Source: an uncultured bacterium
Lineage (GTDB): Bacteria > Patescibacteriota > Minisyncoccia > Phycocordibacterales > PALSA-1337
DNA: 64,000 nt
Direction: 5' to 3'
NCBI GenBank assembly: GCA_963848635.1
Contig: CAWKEA010000005.1
Coordinates: 257,526-321,525, forward strand
Shown here one piece after another: positions 1,875-58,696 of this stretch. How positions within the stretch are numbered: the stretch's first letter is position 1; the number at the start of each line of letters is the position of its first letter. Under the pieces are notes generated by a model. The model saw only the letters and a program-made list of their open reading frames with translations. It was not told where the DNA came from and made no database searches. Made by a program: the position numbers and the translations under genes.

Positions 1875-3300
1875 TTAATAATAAACTTCAATGTTGAGAT
1901 CAACCTCATTACTGCTTCCCCTTCCGCCGGTATCGACGATGATCTTGTAATTTCCAGGCGTAGTAGCGGTTTGTTCATTCGACGGACATACAGCATTTGA
2001 AGTTAGGGGTATCAGACACAACTTGGAAGGCAAGACGAATGATATCTGGCTATTTCCTTGCGCGCTCGAAGGAATGCCTACCCATAGTACAGCCGAGTAA
2101 TTTCCGTTTGTTAGCCTGACTTCGGTCAAGTCAGTGGTGCTCGACATTCCCAAAGGGACAAAGTTATAGCCTGTGATCGTTATCGTATTGCCAACTTCAG
2201 CAATCGCAGGATATATCGAATTTATAACAGGAAATCCAGGATTTGAGAAGGAATTTGCTGCGGTTGTGTCAGCTGAATTCGTCTGTACGTTCATAGAATT
2301 CTGTTCATTGATCTGCTTATAGAAGCTAAATTTATCTATAGAGCTTGTCCCGAGAATCTGCGACTGAATTTTCCAAAGGAACGGCATGACCATAAAGATC
2401 AAAGCACCTATGATCATGAATACGACTAATATCGTCTTTCTGCTCTTGTGCTTGCTTGTGTCAGCGGCATTCGATACTATCCGACTCTCCTTTGCATTAA
2501 AGTAAAGCTCGAAATACACCAACATAAGCAGAGGATACACGAGTACCACCAATGCTCCGATGAGCGCAATCCCAAAGAGCACTCCGAATATGATCAGCAA
2601 GACTTCCAAATGCAGGATCGTCGCCAGGCCAAATGCTATAACAAAGAAAATCACTGATACGATCTCCGCTATCATAGCGACGAGACCACACAAGAGGCCG
2701 ATGAGCAGGATTTTACCGAATATGCTCCACCAGCGGTCCTTTACCAGAGACCAACTGCCGATAAGAGCATCGAAACCGCGCTTGCCATCAACCATAAACT
2801 CAAACTGACTGAAAAGAAGATATATAAGGAAGGCAATGGCCGGAATGATGAGGAGATATTCTCCGGCATAAAATATGAGAGTGGTTGCGACAGTCAATAC
2901 GAGAAATGGCCAAAATATCCTGATTCCTTGAATATGCGACTCCGATGCCTTGAAAGTCGCTTTTGTAGAGATCAGTGACGCCTCGAAGAAAAATGGCCAG
3001 GAAAAGAACGATGACCAGAAAAACACATCCGAGAGTAACCAGATAGAGCGGGCCTACGGCAGAAGCTGGAAAATTTCCTTGCTGGCCAGAGAATATCGTG
3101 TAAAAGAATCCTGCATACAGAAGAATGACTCCAATGGCACCGACACCGATAGTCGCCAGAGAGAGCGGCCACAATCTTTTGAAGAATAATTTATAGGAGG
3201 TCCATGCTTTTTCTACGATGATGACGGTCGGCAAGAGAGGTTTAAGAGGGATCGCTTGCAAAGCGGGAGCAACAGTATTCGATATATCCTGTGGGTTCAT
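1875..3300 (-). CDS. polytopic membrane protein with C-terminal IPT/TIG-like beta domain; apparent frameshift near 2925-2945
   Basis: Two overlapping minus ORFs (2800..3300 and 1875..3026) both look protein-like on either side of ~2930 (TM-rich segments). Joined they give a ~475-aa protein ending in an IPT/TIG-like segment (NPGFPVINSIYPAIAEVGNTITITGYNF...GNYKIIVDTGGRGSSNEVDLNIEVYY). Confidence 0.5.
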
Positions 3301-3504
3301 CGTTTTATTGGTTTTGAATAAGCGGTAATTGATTCACGTTGTTACCGCTCTTGATTTGTGCCTTGAGCTAAATGTGATTTTATATAGTCGAGTAATTGCT
3401 GGTTCATTTTGGTGTATTATTATTAATTTTCGTCGTTAATGACTTGACGATATAGTACAACGTATTGTTCTCTTAATCAATGCCCCTATTTTGCAAAAGT
3501 GGAC

Positions 3505-3540
3505 AAGAAAAAACCGCCGGACCCTCGTCCGAGCGGCTTT
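3505..3540 (-). terminator. rho-independent terminator-like hairpin (CCGCtCGGAC-GAGG-GTCCGGCGG + U-run on minus strand)
   Basis: Plus strand reads aaaaaaccgccggaccctcgtccgagcggcttttcc, a GC stem flanked by an A-run and a T-run, about 230 nt downstream of the 16S 3' region. Confidence 0.5.
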
Positions 3541-3911
3541 TCCTAGTGCTTGTATGCCTTTCTTTCTTTATACATTTATATTTTAACCGACGTCCTCTCT
3601 TTTGTTCCGTTCATCCATGAGCTTTTCTATAGAGAAAGCCCATGTATGCCATTCACCTTCTCATGGCTGAGGCTATAGTTCGAGTCTACAGCTAGACATT
3701 CATACTTCGAAGTCAAAGACTTCTCAGCATGATCGACACGTTAAGTCATCGTTCACCGAAGCGAACGAAAACGTTTTTCACCTTGAAAATTTCCACGAGC
3801 AGCTTCCGCTACCCGTGCCTTGTTACGACTTACTCCCTGTCATTGAGCTTACCTTAGGCCGCCATACGGCGGACTTCGGGTATTCCCAACTCCCTTGAGT
3901 TGACGGGCGGT

Positions 3912-4788
3912 ATTGTGTTTCGATAAATTTTCGAATATGCTCGTTCCCACGTAGCGAGCGGATTTCCCGCACTACGCGAGTCCAAAGTTTGCAAATTCAT
4001 AGTCTCTCGAACTGTCAACATCTTTTGTAATACCTTTTTCGTCAGATGCTCTTTGCTTTCACCAAGCGATCAATCTGGCAGAAAATCTCGCAAATTCTTT
4101 TGCTTTGAAGCAATTGAAAAGGATTTTTCTTGAAGAAAGGATGATTATTTTACCAAGATATCCTATTGAGAACTTACCGAGTAGCAATAACATTGGCAAT
4201 GATTGGCGCGTTCTTCTTTTTGAAAGTAACACTTCGCCGCATTTCAATGATAATTCTGTCACATCGTTCCAAAGATCTCCTTGTCCCTTTCCTGCATCTT
4301 CATAGTGGAGTCATTTGGACACTCGACTCCTCATGCGTTATAAAGAAGACTTCCGATATTGACATAGAAGCAACCTTCACCATCGATAAGTCCGACAACA
4401 TAATCTGTTTGACACCTTTGGATTTGTGTCCTTCCCATGCGCTTATTATATCAAATTAAGTTGACGCATAGTACTACGACTCAGCTGACTTCTACATAAA
4501 TTTAATTATACTTTATCATTTTTGATAACAACGCATCAGATCTCCCGGGTCATTCATTTTTCTGTTCCAACCATCCTAATCAAGGTTTTCAACGGAAATT
4601 TCCCCTGACTCACCGCCCTTAGTTGGAGTCGTCATCGCCTTCTTTCTATCGGGCTGCCCTTTGCATCCCGGATCCTCCGAACATCCCCTCGCGGAAGATG
4701 TACTATCCTTTCGCTACTACCGCACTCATAAATCACGGAATGGATTTTAACAGCTAGATGACACGACTGCCAAGCGCATTGCATTCTG
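3912..4788 (-). mobile_element. intron-like insertion in 16S rRNA (between the 1392 block GACGGGCGGT and GTACAAG...GAACGTATTCACCG), probably a group I intron with a degenerate LAGLIDADG homing endonuclease ORF
   Basis: The conserved 16S sequence stops after gacgggcggt(attgtg) at ~3912 and resumes at ~4788 with tgagtacaagacttgagaacgtattcaccg. The ~875 nt between have no 16S homology. A minus-strand mini-ORF in them encodes MGRTQIQRCQTDYVVGLIDGEGCFYVNIGSLLYNA*, which carries a LAGLIDADG motif. Confidence 0.7.
4330..4438 (-). pseudogene. degenerate LAGLIDADG homing endonuclease remnant (first LAGLIDADG motif, premature stop)
   Basis: Minus-strand translation gives ...DYVVGLIDGEGCFYVNIG...; VGLIDGEGCF matches the LAGLIDADG/LAGFIDGEG consensus. 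The ORF is only 35 aa before its stop. Confidence 0.55.
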
Positions 4789-5874
4789 AGTACAAGACTT
4801 GAGAACGTATTCACCGCAGCGTGCTGATCTGCGATTACTAGCGATTCCGGCTTCATGAGGTCGAGTTGCAGACCTCAATCCGAACTGGCGCATCCTTTAG
4901 AGGGTTGGCTCCGCCTTTTATCGGCTTGGCGTCCTTTTGTAGATGCGATTGTAACACGTGTGTAGCCCAGGGTATCAGAGGGCCATGCTGACTTGGCGTC
5001 ATCCTCGCCTTCCTCCCACGATTCTGCTCGATCAAGTCCAATCCTAAGTCATAAAGTCTTAAGTTCGCATTCTTGATTTACTTTATGAACTTCCGATTGA
5101 ATGCAATCAAAATCGTGGGCAGTCTCGCCTGACATATATAACAGGCAACGAGGGTTGCGTTCGTTACCCCACTTAAGGGAACAATTCAAACCACGAACTG
5201 ACGACAGCCATGCAGCACCTGTCTAACTGCCTTGCGGCGACCAAAGTTTCCTCTGGTCTTCAGCTAGATTTCTAACCCTGGTAAGGTTTTTCGTTTGTCG
5301 TCGAATTGAACCACATGTTCCACCGCTTGTGCAAGTCCCCGTCTATTTCTTTGAGTTTTAACCTTGCGGTCGTACTACCCAGGCGGATCTCTTAACGCGT
5401 TAGCTACGGCTCGAGGAGGGTCGATACTCCTCAAACCAAGAGATCATCGTTTAGGGCGTGGACTACTGGGGTATCTAATCCCATTCGCTACCCACGCTTT
5501 CGTGTTTCAGCGTCAAGAATGCTCCAGTCTCCTGCCTTCGCTTTTGGTGTTCCCCATGATATCAACGCATTTCACCGCTACACCATGAGTTCCAGAGACC
5601 CCTCGCATCTTCTAGCTATGCCGTTTCCCGCGCAGGTCCCCGGTTGAGCCGAAGAATTTAACGCGAGACTAACACAGCCGCCTACACACCCTTTACGCCC
5701 AATAATTCCGGATAACGCTTGAGGCACTCGTATTACCGCTGCTGCTGGCACGAGTTTAGCAACCTCTTATTCATGAGCTCTTCAATAAACTTAGTCGCTC
5801 ATAAAAGGTTTTTACGTACCGAAGTACTTCATCAACCACGCGGCGTCGCTCCGTCAGGCTTTCGCCCATTGCGG

Positions 5875-5905
<31 letters not shown>

Positions 5906-6457
5906 ATGGACCGTGTCTCAGTTCCATCGGTGGGGGTCAGCCTCTCAGCTCCCCTAGACGTCATAGCCTTGGTAGGCCGTTACCCTACCAACTAGCTGAT
6001 ATCGAAAAGGCCGTTCCAAGGGCGAAAAAACTTTACCCTTCAGCCTTGCGGCTTCAGGGACTATCGGGAATTATCTAACCTTTCGGCTAGTTATGCCCGA
6101 CCCTTGGGGACGTACCTGATTATTACTACCTCGTCTGCCGGTGACCCTTGCGGATCCCCTAGACTTGCATGCCTTATCCACGCCGCCAGCGTTCATCCTG
6201 AGCTAGAATCAAACTCTATCAATAAATGAACGGAACAAAAGAGAAAACGCAAATTCGGCTTGTCTGCCGTGAGGCAGACCTGTGCCGACTTTCATAATCG
6301 CCAATGATCACTGTTTATTGATATCGTCCCATCCAGCTCGTAAATTATCGTTTATTATTTGGACTTGCTTTTATCTCAATCTTTTTTCAAGATTGTGTGT
6401 GAATTTCAATTTTCTAAATTTTCAAAGGGCCCAGCCCCCGTTTGGGACATGGGATGT

Positions 6458-35197: not shown

Positions 35198-38100
35198 TTA
35201 TAAGACGAGGTCGAACTTGATGCCAGCTGTGGCATCAACTACTGCACCATTTACAACAATCTCAATATTCTTCAACAATACCGCCTTCACGAGCTCTTCC
35301 TTGTTCCTTTCGATGAAAGCCTCCCCCGCCTTGTCCGCGGCAAAGACCTTGAGGATCGGCCGATCCTGTATCGTGAGCTTTTGCTCCTTGCGCCTATCCT
35401 GGATGGCGCGCATGAGGTCGCGCAGTTCCCCTTCTTCTTTCAATTCAGGCGTTATGTTCAGATCAAGCTCAACTTCTGTGCTGATACTTCCATCAACAAC
35501 GACTTCCTTCACATTGACTTCTTCGTTGATCAAATCAAGCAAGTTTTTGTCTTCAATTTTGAACTTTGCATTTTGCACTTTCAATTTTGAGAGCGGCTGT
35601 CTGACGTTTATCTTTGCTTTTGAGCGAGCTTCGAGGCCAAGGGATGCTATGTCGCGGACAAGCTTCATATTCTCAATCAGATCTTTGTCGATTGCACTGA
35701 GAGCGGGCCAACTCTCGAGATGCACGCTTTCACGGCCGCCTTTCAGTCTCATGTAGACGTCTTCGGCAAGGAACGGCATGAACGGCGCTAGTAATTTTGA
35801 TACTTCAAGGAAAACGAGGCGCGTCGTTGCGAGAGCGGCCGACTTATCAGCTTCATCTTCCCCCTTGAACCTGTCTCGCGAGCGACGCAAATACCATGTA
35901 GAAAGGTCATCGATAAAATCTGCAAACGGCCTCGTCGCCTTGTCGAGCTCATATTTCTCCATTCCTTCAGTCACCTCCTTGTTCAATTCATTCAGGCGAG
36001 AGACGATCCATCGGTCAAGGATGTTTTTGCTTGCATCGCTTCGCGACGGAATGGTCTCGCTCACACGAAATTCTTCTGTTGAAGAATTTCTCCGTTCCGC
36101 GCCGTCGCGCTCCACGAGGTTCGCTCGACCCATTCCGGTCGCTTCGCCTGCATACAATTCATAGAACGTCACGACATTCAAAAGCCTGCCGATGTGCTTC
36201 TTGACCACTTCATCGACGCCCTTTTCTGAAAAACAGAATTCCTGGGCACGAACAGCAGGAGAAGACAAGAGATAGTAGCGCAAGGCATCGGCTCCATATT
36301 TCCGGACGACAGGCATGAGATCAGGGAAATTATTCTTTGATTTGGACATCTTTTGCCCGTCTTCAGCCAGAATGATGCCATTGACAACGACATTTTTATA
36401 TGGCGCTCGGCCAAAAAGCGCCGTACCGAGCACGATCATGCTATAGAACCATCCGCGCGTCTGATCGACACCTTCAGCAATGAAATCCGCAGGATATCCC
36501 CTACTTTTCCCCAACTTATCCCCAGTTATCTTTGCGAGGAATCCCCTCGCTGGATCGAATTCTTTTGTATCAAAAGGATAATGCGCCTCGCCGAACGGCA
36601 TCGAGCCTGATTCGAACCAGCAATCGAAGACTTCCTCGACGCGCTTTAGTTTTTCGCCGCCCGGCAGATGCAATTCGATATCATCGATGTATGGCCTGTG
36701 CAAATCGATCTCGAAATCGTCATTGTGCGGCAGTGGCACAAAATCGAGCTTTTCAGGAGCGGCGTTATCGAAATAATGGAGCTTGCGGTTTCTGAGATTG
36801 AGGGTCCCTTTGTCATCGAGCCCGAGCGAAACAGATGCCAGCATAAAAGCCGGCGCATCGTGAGTGACGATAAGGATGTTCTTGCCTACATACCTCCTCT
36901 CCATGTCATAGATAAAACTGCCGACCCGCTTTCGGATATCGGCGTAGTTCTCCCCCTTTGGAAGGCGAATAGAAAAGCGCTTCTCATGCGGGAAAGCTTC
37001 CATGAACTCATCGAATGGCTTGCCGTCATAGATGCCGGAATCCAATTCGTGAAGACGATCGTCGACGATGATATTTTTCTTCGGAAAATCCAGTCCAGCC
37101 GCAAGGATATCTGCAGTCTCTTTTGTGCGGACAAAAGGCGAGACAAAGATGATATCGATCTTCTTGTCGGCAAAGAATGCCGCCGCAGCCTTCACTTGCG
37201 CCTTTCCTTTCTCTGTCAGATGCTTTGGGTCGGTTGCTTTCGCGCTCATGACGCCGAGCGTGTTATTCTCCGCTTCGCCATGACGCATGATGTAGTAGGA
37301 GTTTTTGGCTTGCGAATGCTTCCTGAGGTCGTTGATCGAACCGAAGCAATGGATAGAGCCTGACTTTTCGCCGCGCCAGACCGGGATCGGAGCGCCCCAA
37401 AAACGCGAGCGGGAGATGGCCCAGTCGCGAGCTCCCGCGAGCCAGTTGCCGAAACGTCCTTCGCCGACTTCTGGCGGAGTCCAACTGACTTTGCCGTTCG
37501 CGGCAACGAGCTTGTCCTTGAAATCGCTGACGCGCACGAACCATGACGACGCGGCATAATTGAGGAGCGGCGTGTCGCAACGCCAACAATGCGGATACGA
37601 GTGCGTCATATTCTCCTTTGCAAAGAGAAGGCCTTTTTCTTGGAGCCACTGGATGACTTTTATATCCGTGCGCAAATGCGCGTCCTTGTCTTCCGGCGTA
37701 TCCTTTGGCTTTACTTTCAAACCTGAAAAATCAACGACTTCTTTTTTGAACGTGCCGTCGATATTGACGTGCTGAACGAACGGCAGATTTTCCTTTTGTC
37801 CGAGCGCATAGTCATCAGCGCCGAACGCAGGCGCGATATGGACGATGCCGGTGCCGTCGGTCGTCGTGACAAAATCGGCGGCATATACTTTCCAGCCGTT
37901 TTCGCGATTCTTGAGACTTGTGTCTTTTGAATAATAGTCAAAGAGGGGCACGTAGGATTTGCCGACGAGGTCGGAACCCTTCATCTCTGCGACGATTTCA
38001 TATGCTTCTTTTTTGAAAGTTGCCTCGAGCCTTTCTTTTGCACAAATATAAAAAACTTGATTCTCTCCGCCAACGACAACAGGAACACTTTTTCTACCCC

Positions 38101-39010
38101 CTTCGGTGGAGCGAAAAAGTTTCCTCTCGTCTTGTGTCGCGGCTGACGAAGCGTCCTGTGCCGGTGCATCATTTGAGCTTTCGATTTTTTGTTCAGGCCC
38201 TCCGACTTTCACTTTCACATAATCAATATCCTTGCCTACAGCCAATGCGACATTGCCGGGCAATGTCCACGGCGTCGTCGTCCATGCCAAGAGATACGTA
38301 CCTTCATCGTCCCCGTCTGCATCTTTGAGTTTTGAGTTTTGAGTTTTGAGCTCGAACTTCACATACACTGAAATGTCCTTTATGTCTTTATACCCCTGCG
38401 CGACCTCAAAATTCGATAGCGTCGTCTCGCAGTGCGGACAGATCTGCATCGGCTTGAAGCCCTCATAGACGAGCCCTTTTTCATGCAATTGCTTGAAAGC
38501 CCACCAGACGCTCTCGGTGTAGCTCGAGTTCATGGTCTCGTAATCGTTCTCCATGTCCGCCCAGCGGCCGAGTCGCGGGATGATCTCCTTCCAATCGTTG
38601 ACGTATCGGTGCACCGCTCTTCGAGCGGCAGAATTGAAATTTTTGATGCCAAAATCGATGATGTCTTTCTTGCTCTTGAGCCCGAGTTCCTTTTCAATCA
38701 GATTCTCGACCGGCAAGCCGTGACAATCCCAACCCCAGCGACGGCGCACGCTGTAGCCTTGCATCGTCTTGTAGCGAGGAACTGCGTCTTTTATCGAAGT
38801 CGGCAAAACGTGGCCAAAATGCGGCAATCCCGTAGCGAATGGCGGCCCGTCATAAAAGACGAACTTGCCGCGCGGAGCTTCCCTATCGACGCTTTTCTTA
38901 AAAATATCGTTCTCCTTCCAATATTTTAAAATGCGCTCTTCGCGCTCTTGTGCTGGCGTTTTTGCGACCACCTTGTCGCCAGTTTGGCCTGCATTCTGAT
39001 TTGTTGTCAT
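35198..39010 (-). CDS. ileS: isoleucyl-tRNA synthetase with a ~200-aa histidine-phosphatase (PGAM-like) domain inserted in place of the zinc-knuckle segment
   Basis: FYDGPPFATGLPHFGHVL (HIGH), GWDCHGLPVE, KMSKSKNN, and a C-terminal anticodon-binding domain. Residues ~565-765 read YYIMRHGEAENN...LTEKGKAQV...IIFVSPFVRTKETADIL...DDRLHELDSG...ILIVTHDA, matching histidine phosphatase branch-1 motifs. They lie between WRGEKSGSIHCFGSINDLRKHS and DLHRPYIDD...EVFDCWFESGSMP. Confidence 0.9.
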   Translation of the reverse strand: MTTNQNAGQTGDKVVAKTPAQEREERILKYWKENDIFKKSVDREAPRGKFVFYDGPPFATGLPHFGHVLPTSIKDAVPRYKTMQGYSVRRRWGWDCHGLPVENLIEKELGLKSKKDIIDFGIKNFNSAARRAVHRYVNDWKEIIPRLGRWADMENDYETMNSSYTESVWWAFKQLHEKGLVYEGFKPMQICPHCETTLSNFEVAQGYKDIKDISVYVKFELKTQNSKLKDADGDDEGTYLLAWTTTPWTLPGNVALAVGKDIDYVKVKVGGPEQKIESSNDAPAQDASSAATQDERKLFRSTEGGRKSVPVVVGGENQVFYICAKERLEATFKKEAYEIVAEMKGSDLVGKSYVPLFDYYSKDTSLKNRENGWKVYAADFVTTTDGTGIVHIAPAFGADDYALGQKENLPFVQHVNIDGTFKKEVVDFSGLKVKPKDTPEDKDAHLRTDIKVIQWLQEKGLLFAKENMTHSYPHCWRCDTPLLNYAASSWFVRVSDFKDKLVAANGKVSWTPPEVGEGRFGNWLAGARDWAISRSRFWGAPIPVWRGEKSGSIHCFGSINDLRKHSQAKNSYYIMRHGEAENNTLGVMSAKATDPKHLTEKGKAQVKAAAAFFADKKIDIIFVSPFVRTKETADILAAGLDFPKKNIIVDDRLHELDSGIYDGKPFDEFMEAFPHEKRFSIRLPKGENYADIRKRVGSFIYDMERRYVGKNILIVTHDAPAFMLASVSLGLDDKGTLNLRNRKLHYFDNAAPEKLDFVPLPHNDDFEIDLHRPYIDDIELHLPGGEKLKRVEEVFDCWFESGSMPFGEAHYPFDTKEFDPARGFLAKITGDKLGKSRGYPADFIAEGVDQTRGWFYSMIVLGTALFGRAPYKNVVVNGIILAEDGQKMSKSKNNFPDLMPVVRKYGADALRYYLLSSPAVRAQEFCFSEKGVDEVVKKHIGRLLNVVTFYELYAGEATGMGRANLVERDGAERRNSSTEEFRVSETIPSRSDASKNILDRWIVSRLNELNKEVTEGMEKYELDKATRPFADFIDDLSTWYLRRSRDRFKGEDEADKSAALATTRLVFLEVSKLLAPFMPFLAEDVYMRLKGGRESVHLESWPALSAIDKDLIENMKLVRDIASLGLEARSKAKINVRQPLSKLKVQNAKFKIEDKNLLDLINEEVNVKEVVVDGSISTEVELDLNITPELKEEGELRDLMRAIQDRRKEQKLTIQDRPILKVFAADKAGEAFIERNKEELVKAVLLKNIEIVVNGAVVDATAGIKFDLVL

Positions 39011-39119: not shown

Positions 39120-40910
39120 TTACATCCTCTCCGGCACTTGGATGCCGAGGAGGGTGAGACCGTTTGTCATAACGATAGAAAAGGCCTCGGTTAAAGCGAT
39201 CTTGTAGGGAGAATACGTGTCATCGGCCGAAATGATCTGATTGTTCGCATAATAGCTGTTGAATATGCCGGCGAGTTCAGTGAGGTATGTCGTGATGTAA
39301 TGCGGTTCGTATTCGCTCGCCGCGCGTTCGACTATCTCTGGAAGACGACAGAGCATCTTTTCGAGCTCATGGGCGGATTCGGTCGGCTTCTTGAATGATC
39401 CGATGACGCCTGCTTCCTCTGCTTTTCTCAAGATAGATTTCGCCCGCACAGCCGAATATTGCAGGTATGGGCCAGAGTCGCCTTCAAAGGAGATCGACTT
39501 GTCGAGATCGAATATGATGTCGTCTCCGCTCGATTGCCGGAGGATCGAATATTTTATGGCGCCTATCGCTATCTCTTCGCTTATTTTTGGCGCAAGGCTG
39601 ATGGCTCCGGCGTCTTTCTTGCCGAATCTCTCATCTATCGAATCTGTGACTTTTCCTATGAGAGACAGCGCCGTAACTACGTCTCCTGTACGAGATGACA
39701 TCTTGCCGGAAGGCAATCGAAGCATCCCGTGCGGGAGATGCCGGATGTTCGTCCCTTTTGAATCGCCTGCGACAAAGACTTTTCCGATAGCATCCAAAAG
39801 CACCTTGTAATAATCTTTTATCTCGTTTCCCGTGACGACCAACGACAGATCATAGGGATATTTTTTCCTCTTCATCTCGACCAGGCCGAGCTCTTTCGCT
39901 TCATAGGTCGGCAAGCCCTCCGAACTGATGAAAACGCGCGTATGCAGGCCTTTTTCCTCGTCGCCTTTGAAGACGACTGCTCCATCGCTCTTTTCGAATA
40001 TGCCGTTCTTTAGATTGTCTTCGACGATCTTCTTGCCGATAGGGCCCGCTTCGCTTTCAAAGAAAAAGAAGTCGTAGCTCGTGCCGAGCTTTTGATACAT
40101 CGCCGCGAAATATTCGAGCGAGACCTTCCTTCCGAACTCATATATGCTCTGGATTTCCGGATCCTCTTTCGAATATATCTTTTTATTTATCTCGATTATC
40201 TCTTTTTTTGATCTTTCGTCATTCTCGTAAGCACTGGCGCCTTTCGCATAATAACCGCCGAGCTCGGCGGCTGTGGCCTTTTTTTGCAGAGCTCCATTCT
40301 CGGTTTCAGCATGCGTCCATCCCCAGATCGCTTTCGCCACGTGCAGTCCGACATCTCCCTGATAGCACGCACGCATGACCTCCGCTCCGGAAAAAGCGAT
40401 GATACGCGCGACAGATTCGCCGATGGTGTCGCTCATAAGATGCCCGATATGGAATTCCTTGAACGGATTCGGGTCGGTATACTCGATCATGATCTTTTCA
40501 AGCTTAGCCCTCTTGAAAAAATCGTTCGAACCGAATTTTTCCTTTTCTTTCAAGACTTTGCCGACCTGTCCAGCAAAGAATCCCCTTTTGAGATGGAAGT
40601 TGATGAAACCCGGGCCAGCGATGTCTATCTTTTCGACTTCGTCGGGCTTTTTTTTATCGAGCTCTGCAACGAGCTTTTCCGCCAATTCGCGCGGCTTCAT
40701 CTTTACTATTTTTGAAAAGACGAGCGCGGCGTTCGTCGAATAATCGCCATGAGACAGATCATCTGGATGTTCAACGGCAAAATCGCCCTTCGCTATCTCA
40801 AGGCCCGAAAGTGCATCATCGACGGCTTTCTTCAAAATAGCTGATATCATGGCCATAGTGTAGCTTTTTTTTGCAAAAGATTCCACGAGATATCGGACAG
40901 CGTTTTCCAC
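39120..40910 (-). CDS. argS: arginyl-tRNA synthetase
   Basis: YTDPNPFKEFHIGHLMSDTIGESVARI (HIGH region), the ArgRS anticodon-binding DALR domain, and the typical ...RM C-terminus. Confidence 0.9.
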   Translation of the reverse strand: MENAVRYLVESFAKKSYTMAMISAILKKAVDDALSGLEIAKGDFAVEHPDDLSHGDYSTNAALVFSKIVKMKPRELAEKLVAELDKKKPDEVEKIDIAGPGFINFHLKRGFFAGQVGKVLKEKEKFGSNDFFKRAKLEKIMIEYTDPNPFKEFHIGHLMSDTIGESVARIIAFSGAEVMRACYQGDVGLHVAKAIWGWTHAETENGALQKKATAAELGGYYAKGASAYENDERSKKEIIEINKKIYSKEDPEIQSIYEFGRKVSLEYFAAMYQKLGTSYDFFFFESEAGPIGKKIVEDNLKNGIFEKSDGAVVFKGDEEKGLHTRVFISSEGLPTYEAKELGLVEMKRKKYPYDLSLVVTGNEIKDYYKVLLDAIGKVFVAGDSKGTNIRHLPHGMLRLPSGKMSSRTGDVVTALSLIGKVTDSIDERFGKKDAGAISLAPKISEEIAIGAIKYSILRQSSGDDIIFDLDKSISFEGDSGPYLQYSAVRAKSILRKAEEAGVIGSFKKPTESAHELEKMLCRLPEIVERAASEYEPHYITTYLTELAGIFNSYYANNQIISADDTYSPYKIALTEAFSIVMTNGLTLLGIQVPERM

Positions 40911-40920
40911 GAATCAGGTC

Positions 40921-41190
40921 TTGACAAATTTACATTCTTTGCTATGCTCTCATATAGAGATGGCACCTCCAAAGGCTGTGGACGGGTCCGTAAGCACGGA
41001 TTGCCTTAGGCACCTCGTCCTCGGACGGGCTTGTCTGAAGACACTAACAGCAGGATCTGGACTGCAGAAGCTGCCTTCTCGATGGAGTTCAGCGGATTGC
41101 CCCGCCGCTTCATTTTGAAAAAGCTTCCAATAGATCATCCGTCCCGTCTTATTCTGCTAACCCTCTCGCCTCGAGCGAGGGGGCTTTTTA
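40921..41190 (+). ncRNA. candidate ~240-nt small RNA bounded by a sigma70-like promoter and a rho-independent terminator (identity unknown; weak SRP-RNA-like motif)
   Basis: TTGACA (40921-40926)-N16-TATGCT (40943-40948), then a transcript ending at CCCTCTCGC-CTCGA-GCGAGGGGG + TTTTTATT (41161-41190). The 5' GGACGGG can pair with the 3' CCGUCCCGUC. The internal AGCAGGAUCUGGACUGCAGAAGCUGCC loosely resembles SRP domain IV (CAGGUCAGGUCCGGAAGGAAGCAGCC). There is no protein-like ORF. Confidence 0.35.
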
Positions 41191-41304
41191 TTGGAAGCAC
41201 AAACCAACAAGCACGACGAACGAGGGGCTCTCACATCGCTCTGATGTCATGCCTGGTCAGGCGCGCAAAATTCCATCGATCCTTTCCGCGATCTTCTTGA
41301 AATC

Positions 41305-41427
41305 CTACTCTTTCCTTGCCGCGAGTACATCGCGGGATACGAAATTTTCGGAGGCGATGAGATTGATAGTGATTTTCTGACGCTTTTTTTCCGCCGATAT
41401 CAATTTTTGTATTTGGATGTCTTTCAT
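41305..41427 (-). pseudogene. glyA: serine hydroxymethyltransferase (glyA) 5' fragment, only first 40 codons
   Basis: MKDIQIQKLISAEKKRQKITINLIASENFVSRDVLAARKE* matches the SHMT N-terminus (..IELIASENYTSPRVMQA..) and then terminates. Confidence 0.6.
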
Positions 41428-41509
41428 AGAGCAAGTGTAGGATAAAATATTTAAAGTTGGAAGACGGAAGACACAGACGCAAGACACAGAAAAGAGAAAC
41501 TGCACTGAT

Positions 41510-41540
41510 AAAAAAAGCCCGCCACACTCGTGACGGGCCA
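41510..41540 (-). terminator. rho-independent terminator on minus strand (GCCCGCCACactcGTGaCGGGC + U7)
   Basis: Plus strand reads aaaaaaagcccgccacactcgtgacgggc. Confidence 0.65.
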
Positions 41541-41545
41541 GACTA

Positions 41546-41910
41546 GATAACAACAACCAACAATGCTACGTAGTGCCGTACGGAAATCGGCCGAGCTGGG
41601 TCTTGGCGACGCAGGGTTGTAAGTCCTCTCGTCACGGTAGCAGCCGGCGCTTTTGTTCGGAAGGAATCGATCAAGAAGTGTACCGCAATAGTATTCCCCA
41701 AAGGAGAACCTTTATCCGTCCACAACTCCGACCGAGAGCATTCCTGGGAGACAAATATGTCGCCCTTTTACCCAGTAAACGCCTGGGTTTCGCGACCAGG
41801 CTTATTAGGTCCATGCCTAATGCTTCATTCAACAACTGCTTTTGTACCTGAGCGGATCCCCTTTATCAGAGGTCCGTATGAGATAGTATACCTTTTGTTA
41901 TTTATGTCAA
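41546..41910 (-). ncRNA. candidate ~360-nt minus-strand structured RNA with its own promoter (TTGACA-N16-TACTAT, reverse complement of 41883-41910), ending at the 41510-41540 terminator (identity unresolved)
   Basis: No protein-like ORF (the track ORFs translate to nonsense). Many GC hairpins such as GCCUGG-UCGCGAAAC-CCAGGC and a GGGUAAAAGGGCG segment. Length fits RNase P RNA or tmRNA, but P4 and T-arm signatures were not found. Confidence 0.3.
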
Positions 41911-41991
41911 GAAATCCCACAAAAAGTTATCCACATACAGAGGTCGGACCTATATGCCGTATTCTCGTAAAAATAATGATGAATGAGGGAG

Positions 41992-42663
41992 TCACAACAA
42001 CAATTGCCTGACATCGAGAAGCGTCGGCAGTTGCGGAGAGCCAATCTTTGGATCGGCTTGCTTTTGATTCACGAGGATCGTATTGATGCCGAGCTCTTGC
42101 GGGATGTAATGATCCGTCTTTGGCCTGTCTCCGATATATATAAATTCTGTCGCGGCAAGATCAGGATATTTTTTCAGCCACATCCTATAGGCATCGCTGT
42201 TTGATTTTGAAAAATGGTCGTCAGTGATGATGTGATTGAATATCTTTGGATCTATACCGAGATGCCCCAATTTTTCGCTCGTGATCTTCATATTGGATCC
42301 AGTGATAAGGTCGATGGCATAATATCTTTCTTTGATATCAAGAAGAAGCCGACGTATCTCTTCATTTGGCTTTAAAAATCTGCCGATATCAGCTTGCTCG
42401 AGCGCCTCTTGGACTGAATTCGTTGAATCGGGAATATCGAGCGCCTTAAGAGCCTGACTGCCGCTCAAACCGCTCCCCTCACGGTAGAGATCCTTGAATC
42501 TCTTTTCGGCCTCGTTCAAAGGAATATGCAGATGATCTGCTATCTTATGGTAAAGATAGACCTGTATAGCGCTATCGATCTCCGGCGACTTCGGATAAAG
42601 GGTCTGATCGAGATCAAAACCGATGACCTTGATATATTCTTTATAATTAAATATATCAGTCAT
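41992..42663 (-). CDS. HAD-superfamily hydrolase (phosphatase)
   Basis: Motif I VIGFDLDQTL (DxDxT), and motif IV ...FIYIGDRPKTD. Confidence 0.8.
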   Translation of the reverse strand: MTDIFNYKEYIKVIGFDLDQTLYPKSPEIDSAIQVYLYHKIADHLHIPLNEAEKRFKDLYREGSGLSGSQALKALDIPDSTNSVQEALEQADIGRFLKPNEEIRRLLLDIKERYYAIDLITGSNMKITSEKLGHLGIDPKIFNHIITDDHFSKSNSDAYRMWLKKYPDLAATEFIYIGDRPKTDHYIPQELGINTILVNQKQADPKIGSPQLPTLLDVRQLLL

Positions 42664-58152: not shown

Positions 58153-58624
58153 AAGCTTTGTGCTCTGCCAGTAGGCTGCACTCCGCTGTACTGTTTACCG
58201 TGGTATTATACCATACCTATATAATTAAAGTCAATAGCGACAGAAAACAGCCCCCGGATGTGCGTAGTGTGTCCGATTCGAAGAGATTTTCCGCTACCTG
58301 CGTATACCAGTCTTTCTTAGAAAATTACCCACTAGGGTGAAAGAAACTGCATAGACAACAAACAAGACTATTTTCAACGGATACCAAAAAGAACACGACC
58401 ATTGAGCAGGCGTCCGACACTTCAATGCACGAAGTTGTTAAGGATTTGATAAAACTTTCAGAACTACTGAAACACGGCTCTACATATTACGAATTGGCTA
58501 ATTCCAGAGAAAAAGAGGAAATTATGAGAATAATCTTTTCAGAACTTTCTGTTTCCGGAAATATCCTTACGTACAAATGTAAAAACGGCTTCAAGGCTCT
58601 AGAAAGTCGTTTTAATCATTCTTG

Positions 58625-58696
58625 TATCCCCACGTGGAATCGAACCACGATCTCGAGCTTCGGAGGCCCGCGCTCTATCCGTTGAGCTATGAGGAC
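58625..58696 (-). tRNA. tRNA-Arg (anticodon CCG)
   Basis: Reverse complement gives GTCCTCA-TA-GCTC-AACGGATA-GAGC-G-CGGGC-CTCCGAA-GCTCG-AGAT-CGTGG-TTCGATT-CCACG-TGGGGAT-A. The acceptor stem pairs 7 of 7 (2 GU), the T-loop is TTCGATT, the anticodon loop CT-CCG-AA. No encoded CCA. Confidence 0.85.

Follow-up and report, generated by a model that had tools for sequence, protein, structure and literature searches.

The window analysed here is a 64,000-nt stretch of DNA from a bacterium belonging to the Candidate Phyla Radiation (CPR), a member of the Parcubacteria whose arginyl-tRNA synthetase (ArgS) has its nearest named relatives in Minisyncoccia, Parcubacteria, Paceibacterota and Taylorbacteria. 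It includes a gene-poor stretch of ~1.1 kb (40857-41991) without a solid gene, flanked on one side by argS (39120-40850/40856, minus strand), the product of which is 100% identical to a database protein (P0001), and on the other by a gene for a HAD-family hydrolase (41992-42663, minus strand). Within this stretch we identified a promoter-to-terminator unit on the plus strand, divergent from argS, which is very probably a real gene for a structured RNA. No gene follows it on its own strand; downstream lies the 3′ end of a convergent glyA (serine hydroxymethyltransferase) or, in the window, a stump of that gene. A sequence-only reading had proposed a small RNA candidate here on the basis of a clean TTGACA-N16-TATGCT promoter and an intrinsic terminator, and both signals are borne out by their conservation in relatives. 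The features of the unit, with the elements of the fold as established below, are:

40921-40948, plus strand: predicted sigma-70-type promoter (consensus scan), with the -35 box TTGACA (40921-40926), a 16-nt spacer and an extended -10 element TG-C-TATGCT (40940-40948; TATGCT at 40943-40948).
40954-41189, plus strand: predicted transcript of ~235 nt, starting 6-9 nt past the -10 box at a conserved (C/A)AGAG and ending in the terminator U-run.
40957-40965, plus strand: 5′ strand of P1 (GAGAUGGCA), partner 41072-41080 (helix 1; 11 pairs, 6 double changes, 89% paired).
40966-40971, plus strand: J1/0, a single-stranded insert CCUCCA, read from the sequence as a C/U-rich motif, which other members carry in their P5 loop instead (GGUUCCUC).
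40972-40977, plus strand: 5′ strand of H0, AAGGCU, partner 41002-41007 (helix 2; 6 pairs, 5 double changes).
40980-40985, plus strand: 5′ strand of the pseudoknot H1, GGACGG, within the internal loop that separates H0 from P2 (helix 3).
40986-41001, plus strand: P2 hairpin GUCCG-UAAGCA-CGGAU (helix 4; 5 pairs, 4 double changes, 100% paired).
41002-41007, plus strand: 3′ strand of H0, UGCCUU (helix 2).
41008-41036, plus strand: P3, a long two-part hairpin with outer AGGCA/UGUCU and inner CUCGU/ACGGG (helix 5; double changes in 10/10 pairs, 95.8% paired).
41037-41049, plus strand: J3/4 with a semi-conserved GAAGACA (AAAGACA or AAGGCA in relatives).
41050-41065, plus strand: P4 hairpin GCAG-GAUCUGGA-CUGC (helix 6; double changes in 5/5 pairs).
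41072-41080, plus strand: 3′ strand of P1 (UGCCUUCUC), placed by hand alignment and pair counts.
41082-41113, plus strand: P5 hairpin AUGGAG...CUUCAU, enclosing a second stem GCGG/CCGC (helix 7; variants AAGGAU/AUCCUU, AAAGAU/AUUUUU and AUGGAG/CUCCAU).
41139-41144, plus strand: 3′ strand of the pseudoknot H1, CCGUCC (helix 3).
41161-41189, plus strand: intrinsic terminator (consensus scan), CCCUCUCGC-CUCGA-GCGAGGGGG followed by a U-run (stem 41161-41183 with 9 pairs, 7 of them GC; T-run to 41189).

The consensus signals alone are not above chance in a 2.5-kb scan, which returned 3 promoter-like sites versus 3.5 expected; terminator-like sites in the same scan numbered 6 versus 2.8 expected. 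We consider the unit significant because its promoter, spacing, AGAG start and terminator recur syntenically in every close relative that has a glyA-argS gap. As relatives we took contigs encoding an ArgS 70-76% identical to that of the window; individual loci are cited below by our own L numbers. Their gene order is rplK-dcd-dut-folA-thyA-tmk-glyA, a gap of ~320-390 nt, and argS-ileS-recO, and alignment of the gaps revealed the unit in all of them, oriented opposite to both glyA and argS. Synteny together with a conserved promoter, 5′ end and terminator was found in 8 relatives recovered through ArgS homologues. The promoter takes the form CTTGACAAAT-N11-TGCTATnnT, at constant spacing, in L003, L005, L007, L009, L010, L011, L014, L015 and L016. 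In the syntenic gaps the (C/A)AGAG start falls 10 nt past TGCTAT, and the body that follows measures ~190 nt; the terminator is GC-rich, and its hairpin is kept with compensated changes in all homologues. In the relatives the terminator abuts the glyA stop codon, with the U-run ending 1-40 nt before it.

A covariance model (R1) built from eight of these sequences scored 113-220 bits at nine loci (the window, L003, L005, L007, L009, L010, L011, L012 and L014). Its match in the window spans 40954-41152 with 113.5 bits and is the only copy there. In three more syntenic gaps (L015, L016, which equals L017, and L008) the promoter, AGAG start and terminator are kept and the body is very diverged. 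With filters off, the L016 element was the best R1 match in 40 kb (11.5 bits, E = 0.005), and the L015 and L008 elements were not detected. Elsewhere, a metagenome pattern scan recovered 3 loci only, a genome contig search with ArgS returned just two distant loci (~50% identity), both without the RNA, and neither a viral scan nor a phage BLAST gave a match to it. As far as sampled, the RNA is confined to one sub-lineage of Parcubacteria (Paceibacteria/Minisyncoccia-like CPR).

Evidence for a conserved structure came from comparative folding with the homologous loci, as the sequence-only reading had recommended. Automatic alignments by MAFFT and by the covariance model misplaced P1, P5 and the tail of three members, namely the window, L009 and L010. 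Because these alignments misplace strands in the more distant members, we built an alignment by hand, segmenting ten distinct homologues and checking that each segmentation reproduced the real sequence. Pairs were counted with our own script and with a counting tool run on an N-padded copy of the hand alignment; in that copy MAFFT displaced P5 of the window by 3 columns, so that P5 is under-counted for the window. The resulting fold has 7 helices and 51 pairs, with standard pairs in 91.6% of cells, compared with 38-42% when the 3′ partners were slid by 1-3 columns. Double changes occurred in 37 of the 51 pairs, versus 3-9 in the slid controls and 15 ± 2.5 in shuffled ones, and none of 500 shuffles reached the observed value. 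Compensated pairs are present in all helices. The stretch of 238 nt also folds with a minimum free energy of -90.5 kcal/mol (z = -2.9 versus shuffles).

The same comparisons bear on whether the unit could be something other than an RNA gene, namely decaying DNA, a small protein gene, or a promoter and terminator that merely insulate argS from glyA read-through. Decay is visible locally in the adjoining glyA stump. The sequence-only reading had seen no open reading frame (ORF) here, which does not hold literally: ORFs of 62-89 aa called mechanically overlap the RNA, among them one of 65 aa at 40921-41118 and one of 89 aa at 41031-41300 (both plus strand), and an ORF of 78 aa on the RNA strand has been annotated by JGI in L003. 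The substance of the statement nevertheless stands, since the homologues differ by indels of 1, 2 and 5 nt, which break every frame, and by paired compensatory substitutions, and together these exclude a conserved reading frame. Given also the 37 compensated pairs, the presence of promoter and terminator in all members and the identity of the sequence in two strains despite rearranged flanks (see below), we regard a non-functional origin or a small protein gene as extremely improbable. The unit bears both marks of a stand-alone structured small RNA (sRNA) gene: its own promoter and intrinsic terminator are kept in the homologues, and compensatory substitutions accumulate where no ORF is conserved.

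The order of strands in the fold is P1a-H0a-H1a-P2-H0b-P3-P4-P1b-P5-H1b. P1, formed by the 5′ end and nucleotides ~120-128, closes a four-way junction from which three arms extend (H0 with P2, P3, and P4), and the P5 hairpin comes next. As the 5′ strand of H1 lies inside P1 and its 3′ strand outside, H1 is a genuine pseudoknot. It comprises 8 pairs, 4 of them invariant and 4 with double changes; its core is invariant and becomes compensated in diverged members, as in GGGACGA/UCGUCCC in L016 and a 10-bp ACGAACGAGA/UCUCGUUCGU in L015, and extra flanking pairs occur in L009 and L011. Outside the helices the sequence is freer. The J4/1 junction is variable (AAGGUAA, AGAAGC, CGAGAUCA and others), and the P4 loops found among homologues are CCAGA, UAUGA, AUCGAA, GAUCUGGA and GAAA. 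The sequence-only reading had already noticed that the GGACGG near the 5′ end is complementary to the CCGUCC near the 3′ end. This pairing is real and covaries, but it does not form a closing stem; it crosses P1 as a pseudoknot, and the closed-end architecture built on it had to be abandoned, since covariation pairs the 5′ end with the middle of the molecule. A nested closed-end fold would require pairing of the 5′ end with the tail and of J3/4 with the 3′ strand of P1. L009, L010, L016 and the window contradict both, including the J3/4-P1b helix taken as an energetically favoured alternative in its own right, and no covariation was found in the outer stem of the nested fold (L009, L010, L016).

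We compared the RNA with known families using Rfam 15 (4227 families), applying the gathering score to the whole window, E ≤ 10 to the stretch 40800-42100 and E ≤ 1 to L005, L009, L010 and L016. At the gathering score only 16S rRNA and tRNA were matched in the window, and at the relaxed thresholds no family matched the RNA, neither in 40800-42100 nor in the four relatives; the SRP_bact, 6S, tmRNA and RNaseP models that the sequence-only reading had named for a scan were among those without a match. ARAGORN found no tmRNA, its sole output being a tRNA-Arg at 58624-58696, and our literature search found no description of such an RNA, only the account of diverged CPR RNase P RNAs discussed below. 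Judged on these comparisons, we take it as a new family of a known kind, a stand-alone structured bacterial sRNA with a narrow distribution. It most resembles orphan structured sRNAs of the raiA type, stand-alone Rfam motifs discovered through comparative genomics, which likewise have their own promoter and terminator, a multi-helix fold backed by covariation, no obvious controlled neighbour and a restriction to certain lineages. It differs from them in its fold (a four-way junction, a hairpin and a loop-to-tail pseudoknot) and its Parcubacteria host, both peculiar to this RNA, and no Rfam model matches it.

Failure to match Rfam need not mean novelty, as an extremely diverged housekeeping RNA (6S, signal recognition particle (SRP) RNA, RNase P RNA or transfer-messenger RNA (tmRNA)) could have drifted beyond recognition in this CPR lineage. 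There is precedent for this in the RNase P RNAs of CPR bacteria, which lack helices and have diverged so far that Rfam cut-offs miss them and lowered thresholds were needed to find them (PMC8172020). The RNA described here could resemble them as another CPR housekeeping RNA that escapes the models, with one invariant long-range helix amid variable hairpins. The sequence-invariant H1 is in this respect reminiscent of P4 of RNase P, a length of ~200 nt fits the range of 6S or large SRP RNAs, and a strong promoter in stable synteny points the same way. The details, however, do not agree with any of these families. Our RNA is ~195 nt long, whereas CPR RNase P RNAs have at least 276 nt (PMC8172020), and its P1 does not enclose the long-range helix. 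The strand order is incompatible with RNase P, there are no P1/P2 helices around both P4 strands, motifs of the GAGGAAAGUCC or ACAGAAnnCGGCUUA type are absent, CR-I and CR-V were not seen on reading the sequences, and no RNase P model matched at E ≤ 10, even below the noise cut-offs.

Likeness to 6S RNA (RF00013 and relatives) lies in a length of ~200 nt, a stand-alone gene, a strong housekeeping-type promoter and the keeping of structure over sequence. A 6S RNA is, however, an interrupted rod with a central bubble and paired 5′ and 3′ ends, while here the 5′ end pairs with mid-molecule nucleotides and covariation gives a branched four-way junction; the Rfam 6S models found no match. As for SRP RNA (4.5S or the large Bacillus type), the sequence-only reading had noted that an internal stretch is reminiscent of helix 8. 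The CAGGAUCUGGACUGCAGAAGCUGCC of the window does loosely resemble the helix 8 consensus, and GAGGUAGCGG in relatives recalls the Alu domain of the Bacillus SRP RNA. The resemblance to helix 8 dissolves on comparison: the stretch (41046-41075) corresponds to P4, J4/1 and the 3′ strand of P1, its sequence varies among homologues (e.g., GCGGCCCAGAGCCGCAAGGUAAUGUC), there is no helix 8 ending in a GNRA tetraloop and bearing the symmetric and asymmetric internal loops to which Ffh binds, nor a long helix 5, and no SRP model matches. For tmRNA, neither ARAGORN nor Rfam gave a match and tRNA-like ends are absent. The topology supported by covariation thus fits none of 6S, SRP, RNase P and tmRNA, and at 70-76% ArgS identity the sequence turns over far faster than such RNAs do. 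We therefore consider a diverged housekeeping RNA highly unlikely.

Several observations show that the RNA gene is independent of its neighbours. The sequence-only reading had named identification as nothing but the argS 5′ UTR as one outcome that would speak against a separate RNA. In fact a conserved -10 box proper to argS (TACAAT; TACACT in the window) lies 0-6 nt ahead of the ATG, and the gene looks leaderless. L012 represents a strain variant of the organism in the window. Its RNA and promoter show 100% identity to the window copy, but the argS side, beginning ~15 nt upstream of the -35 box, has given way to an insertion sequence (IS) transposase gene. A similar IS insertion is found in L014, which belongs to a different lineage, and there too the RNA gene is intact. 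The IS-type transposase genes (L012, 57-1355; L014, 1679-1903) lie inserted 8-15 nt upstream of the -35 box of the RNA. On the other side, glyA is intact in relatives (390-400 aa) and in the window is a remnant (41190-41430, minus strand), its first 38 codons (41427 to 41311, MKDIQIQKLISAEKKRQKITINLIASENFVSRDVLAARKE and a stop codon) being joined to what is left of the C-terminal part. The locus in the window also lacks tmk, thyA, folA and dcd, the local folate/thymidylate cluster having been lost, and the RNA still keeps all its helices. Since neither the loss of glyA, tmk, thyA and folA nor the replacement of the argS side by an IS has removed it, we conclude that it is autonomous and that its location between glyA and argS is inherited synteny without a functional link. 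In L007 (ENA contig_69595, 2570-5626) thyA, glyA and ileS are each broken into several ORFs, which may reflect real pseudogenisation or long-read frameshift errors; this locus was not used for the argument from gene loss.

Cis-acting roles find little room in this arrangement. The RNA does not overlap argS, and in relatives it stops short of the glyA stop codon, so a cis-antisense RNA is not what we see. It is transcribed away from argS and has no Rfam T-box match at E ≤ 10, which argues against a T-box leader, a kind of element that the adjacent argS and ileS had brought to mind, and there is no gene on the same strand downstream that a riboswitch leader could control. A less conventional sensor may still be imagined, in which a ligand-dependent pseudoknot controls the terminator and hence antisense read-through into the convergent glyA. 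The complexity of the RNA is aptamer-like, with a four-way junction and a loop-to-tail pseudoknot directly ahead of the terminator, which in relatives reaches up to the glyA stop codon, and the neighbourhood is dcd-dut-folA-thyA-tmk-glyA. In ZTP riboswitches (pfl; RF01750) an internal loop of the first stem forms a pseudoknot with the 3′ tail that comes after a later hairpin, just before a terminator, and these riboswitches control glyA and folate genes; H0/H1/P2 ... P5-H1′, next to glyA, has a ZTP-like order. In contrast to these riboswitches, however, the RNA is ~3 times larger, has an intervening four-way junction and lacks the ZTP consensus. It is convergent to glyA rather than upstream of it, its terminator has no competing structure, and it outlasts glyA, being fully kept in the window and L012, where glyA is a stump of 38 codons and no folate/thymidylate genes are left. 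Conservation is poor at the junction nucleotides (J4/1), the place of ligand binding, and Rfam gave no ZTP, THF or glycine riboswitch match at E ≤ 10. Reading through the sequences of 10 homologues revealed no conserved stretch that could pair with a terminator arm, on either side, and so provide an expression platform, nor does the 3′ strand of H1 overlap the terminator stem. A sensor of this kind is accordingly very unlikely in our estimation.

The reading that we favour, by a modest preference, is that of an autonomous, pseudoknotted non-coding RNA (~195 nt plus the terminator hairpin) that acts in trans by its shape and is likely to bind protein or serve as a scaffold. We arrive at trans action by shape from the compensation of helices while loops and junctions drift, combined with the lack of a downstream gene and of a conserved anti-terminator. 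In such a scheme, transcription would start from the near-consensus promoter at the conserved AGAG, P1 closes the four-way junction with P5 following it, and the CCGUCC of the 3′ tail pairs back into the GGACGG loop of the first arm, tying both halves of the molecule together before an intrinsic terminator that we take to be constitutive. The stable RNA would then act through the compact shape it adopts in three dimensions, most probably by binding a protein or serving as a scaffold, and candidate contact sites would be the invariant H1, the AAAGACA of the junction, which is semi-conserved, and the GGUUCCUC/CCUCC element, which is exposed. A further reading is that the RNA represents a functional class specific to CPR bacteria, such as a sensor or catalytic RNA that binds a one-carbon or nucleotide metabolite in its core, the pseudoknotted four-way junction, or the RNA subunit of a lineage-specific ribonucleoprotein that replaces a housekeeping function in these hosts with leaderless mRNAs and no SD sites; we think this improbable.

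Alternatively, the RNA may regulate mRNAs in trans by base pairing, its structured body protecting a seed in the GGUUCCUC/CCUCC element, the AAAGACA or the 3′ tail (AAACCUCAUUUGU). The promoter-to-terminator layout is typical of trans-acting sRNAs, and most members, the very diverged L008 included, expose the C/U-rich motif in a loop or a junction. The usual target of a C/U-rich seed, though, appears to be missing in this host. A Shine-Dalgarno (SD)-like motif was found upstream of only 3 of the 41 ORFs of at least 150 aa in the window, and the 3′ tail of the 16S rRNA (...GCUCGUGGAAAUUUUCAAGG) contains no CCUCC anti-SD. Many long ORFs (e.g., argS, ileS and glyA) have instead a TAnnnT box, similar to a -10 element, 5-10 nt before their ATG, which suggests that the mRNAs of the host are mostly leaderless, in line with the missing anti-SD. 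Moreover, the candidate seeds are not conserved in all members, the C/U-rich motif shifting between J1/0 and the P5 loop, and seven covarying helices with a pseudoknot exceed the structure that such sRNAs need. Pairing between the 5′ end of glyA (AUGAAAGACA) and the P1 3′ strand is feasible but shows no covariation; in L016 this strand of P1 has changed and the glyA start has not, and we rejected the pairing. Regulation by a seed is therefore rather unlikely. Two other candidates were also set aside: a mimic of the anti-SD, as the genes of the host lack SD sites and its 16S rRNA the anti-SD, and a sponge for a CsrA-type protein, as GGA motifs are frequent only in the window copy and not, by eye, in the relatives.

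Some points weigh against a pseudoknotted, trans-acting RNA of the kind we favour. The alignment was fitted by hand and leans towards structure, and its ten sequences come from one clade. Thermodynamic folding prefers a nested fold closed by GGACGG/CCGUCC, although energy minimisation, which puts H1 there as the closing stem, has no means of modelling a pseudoknot. The ends of the transcript are those indicated by consensus signals. The elements of L015, L016 and L008 are so diverged that R1 barely detects or misses them. The distribution is narrow, with no R1 match beside argS in L019 (61% ArgS identity) or in L001 and L002 (~50%), three loci that have different neighbours upstream of argS.

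Knowledge of the non-coding RNAs of CPR bacteria hardly extends past rRNA, tRNA and RNase P RNA in diverged forms. A genome of ~0.5-0.9 Mb that keeps a strongly promoted, seven-helix, pseudoknotted RNA while neighbouring metabolic genes decay suggests a function worth the space. The present work provides a delimited candidate with a testable fold, from a family that is invisible to annotation pipelines relying on Rfam. New orphan structured RNAs turn up regularly, and this one has so far been found in a narrow clade.

Other features of the window may be recorded here. The isoleucyl-tRNA synthetase (35198-39010, minus strand, 1270 aa) contains an inserted histidine-phosphatase (His_Phos_1) domain at residues ~573-737, and the same insertion is present in the ileS products of L003, L005 and L011. 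The Rfam match to the 16S rRNA (3780-6224, minus strand) stops at 4739, while the conserved 3′ end (AAGUCGUAACAAGG) lies near 3831, which indicates an insertion of ~900 nt near the 3′ end of the 16S rRNA. A second promoter-to-terminator unit of ~370 nt without a convincing ORF (41509-41935, minus strand; 41880 to 41509) lies 300 nt from the first RNA. Its signals are a promoter TTGACA-16-TACTAT (41910-41883) and a terminator (41539-41516), with a perfect DnaA box TTATCCACA (41927-41935) just upstream of its -35 box. No Rfam family matches it even at E ≤ 10. It shares GUGGACGGAU with the first RNA; a paralogous relationship between the two was rejected, as R1 finds a single copy in the window. 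The 3′ part of the second unit (CCGGCCGAUUUC with its terminator) recurs in L005, L009, L010 and L016, where it is conserved in the space separating tmk from glyA, and together with the first RNA the unit would point to a small set of stable RNAs specific to CPR bacteria.

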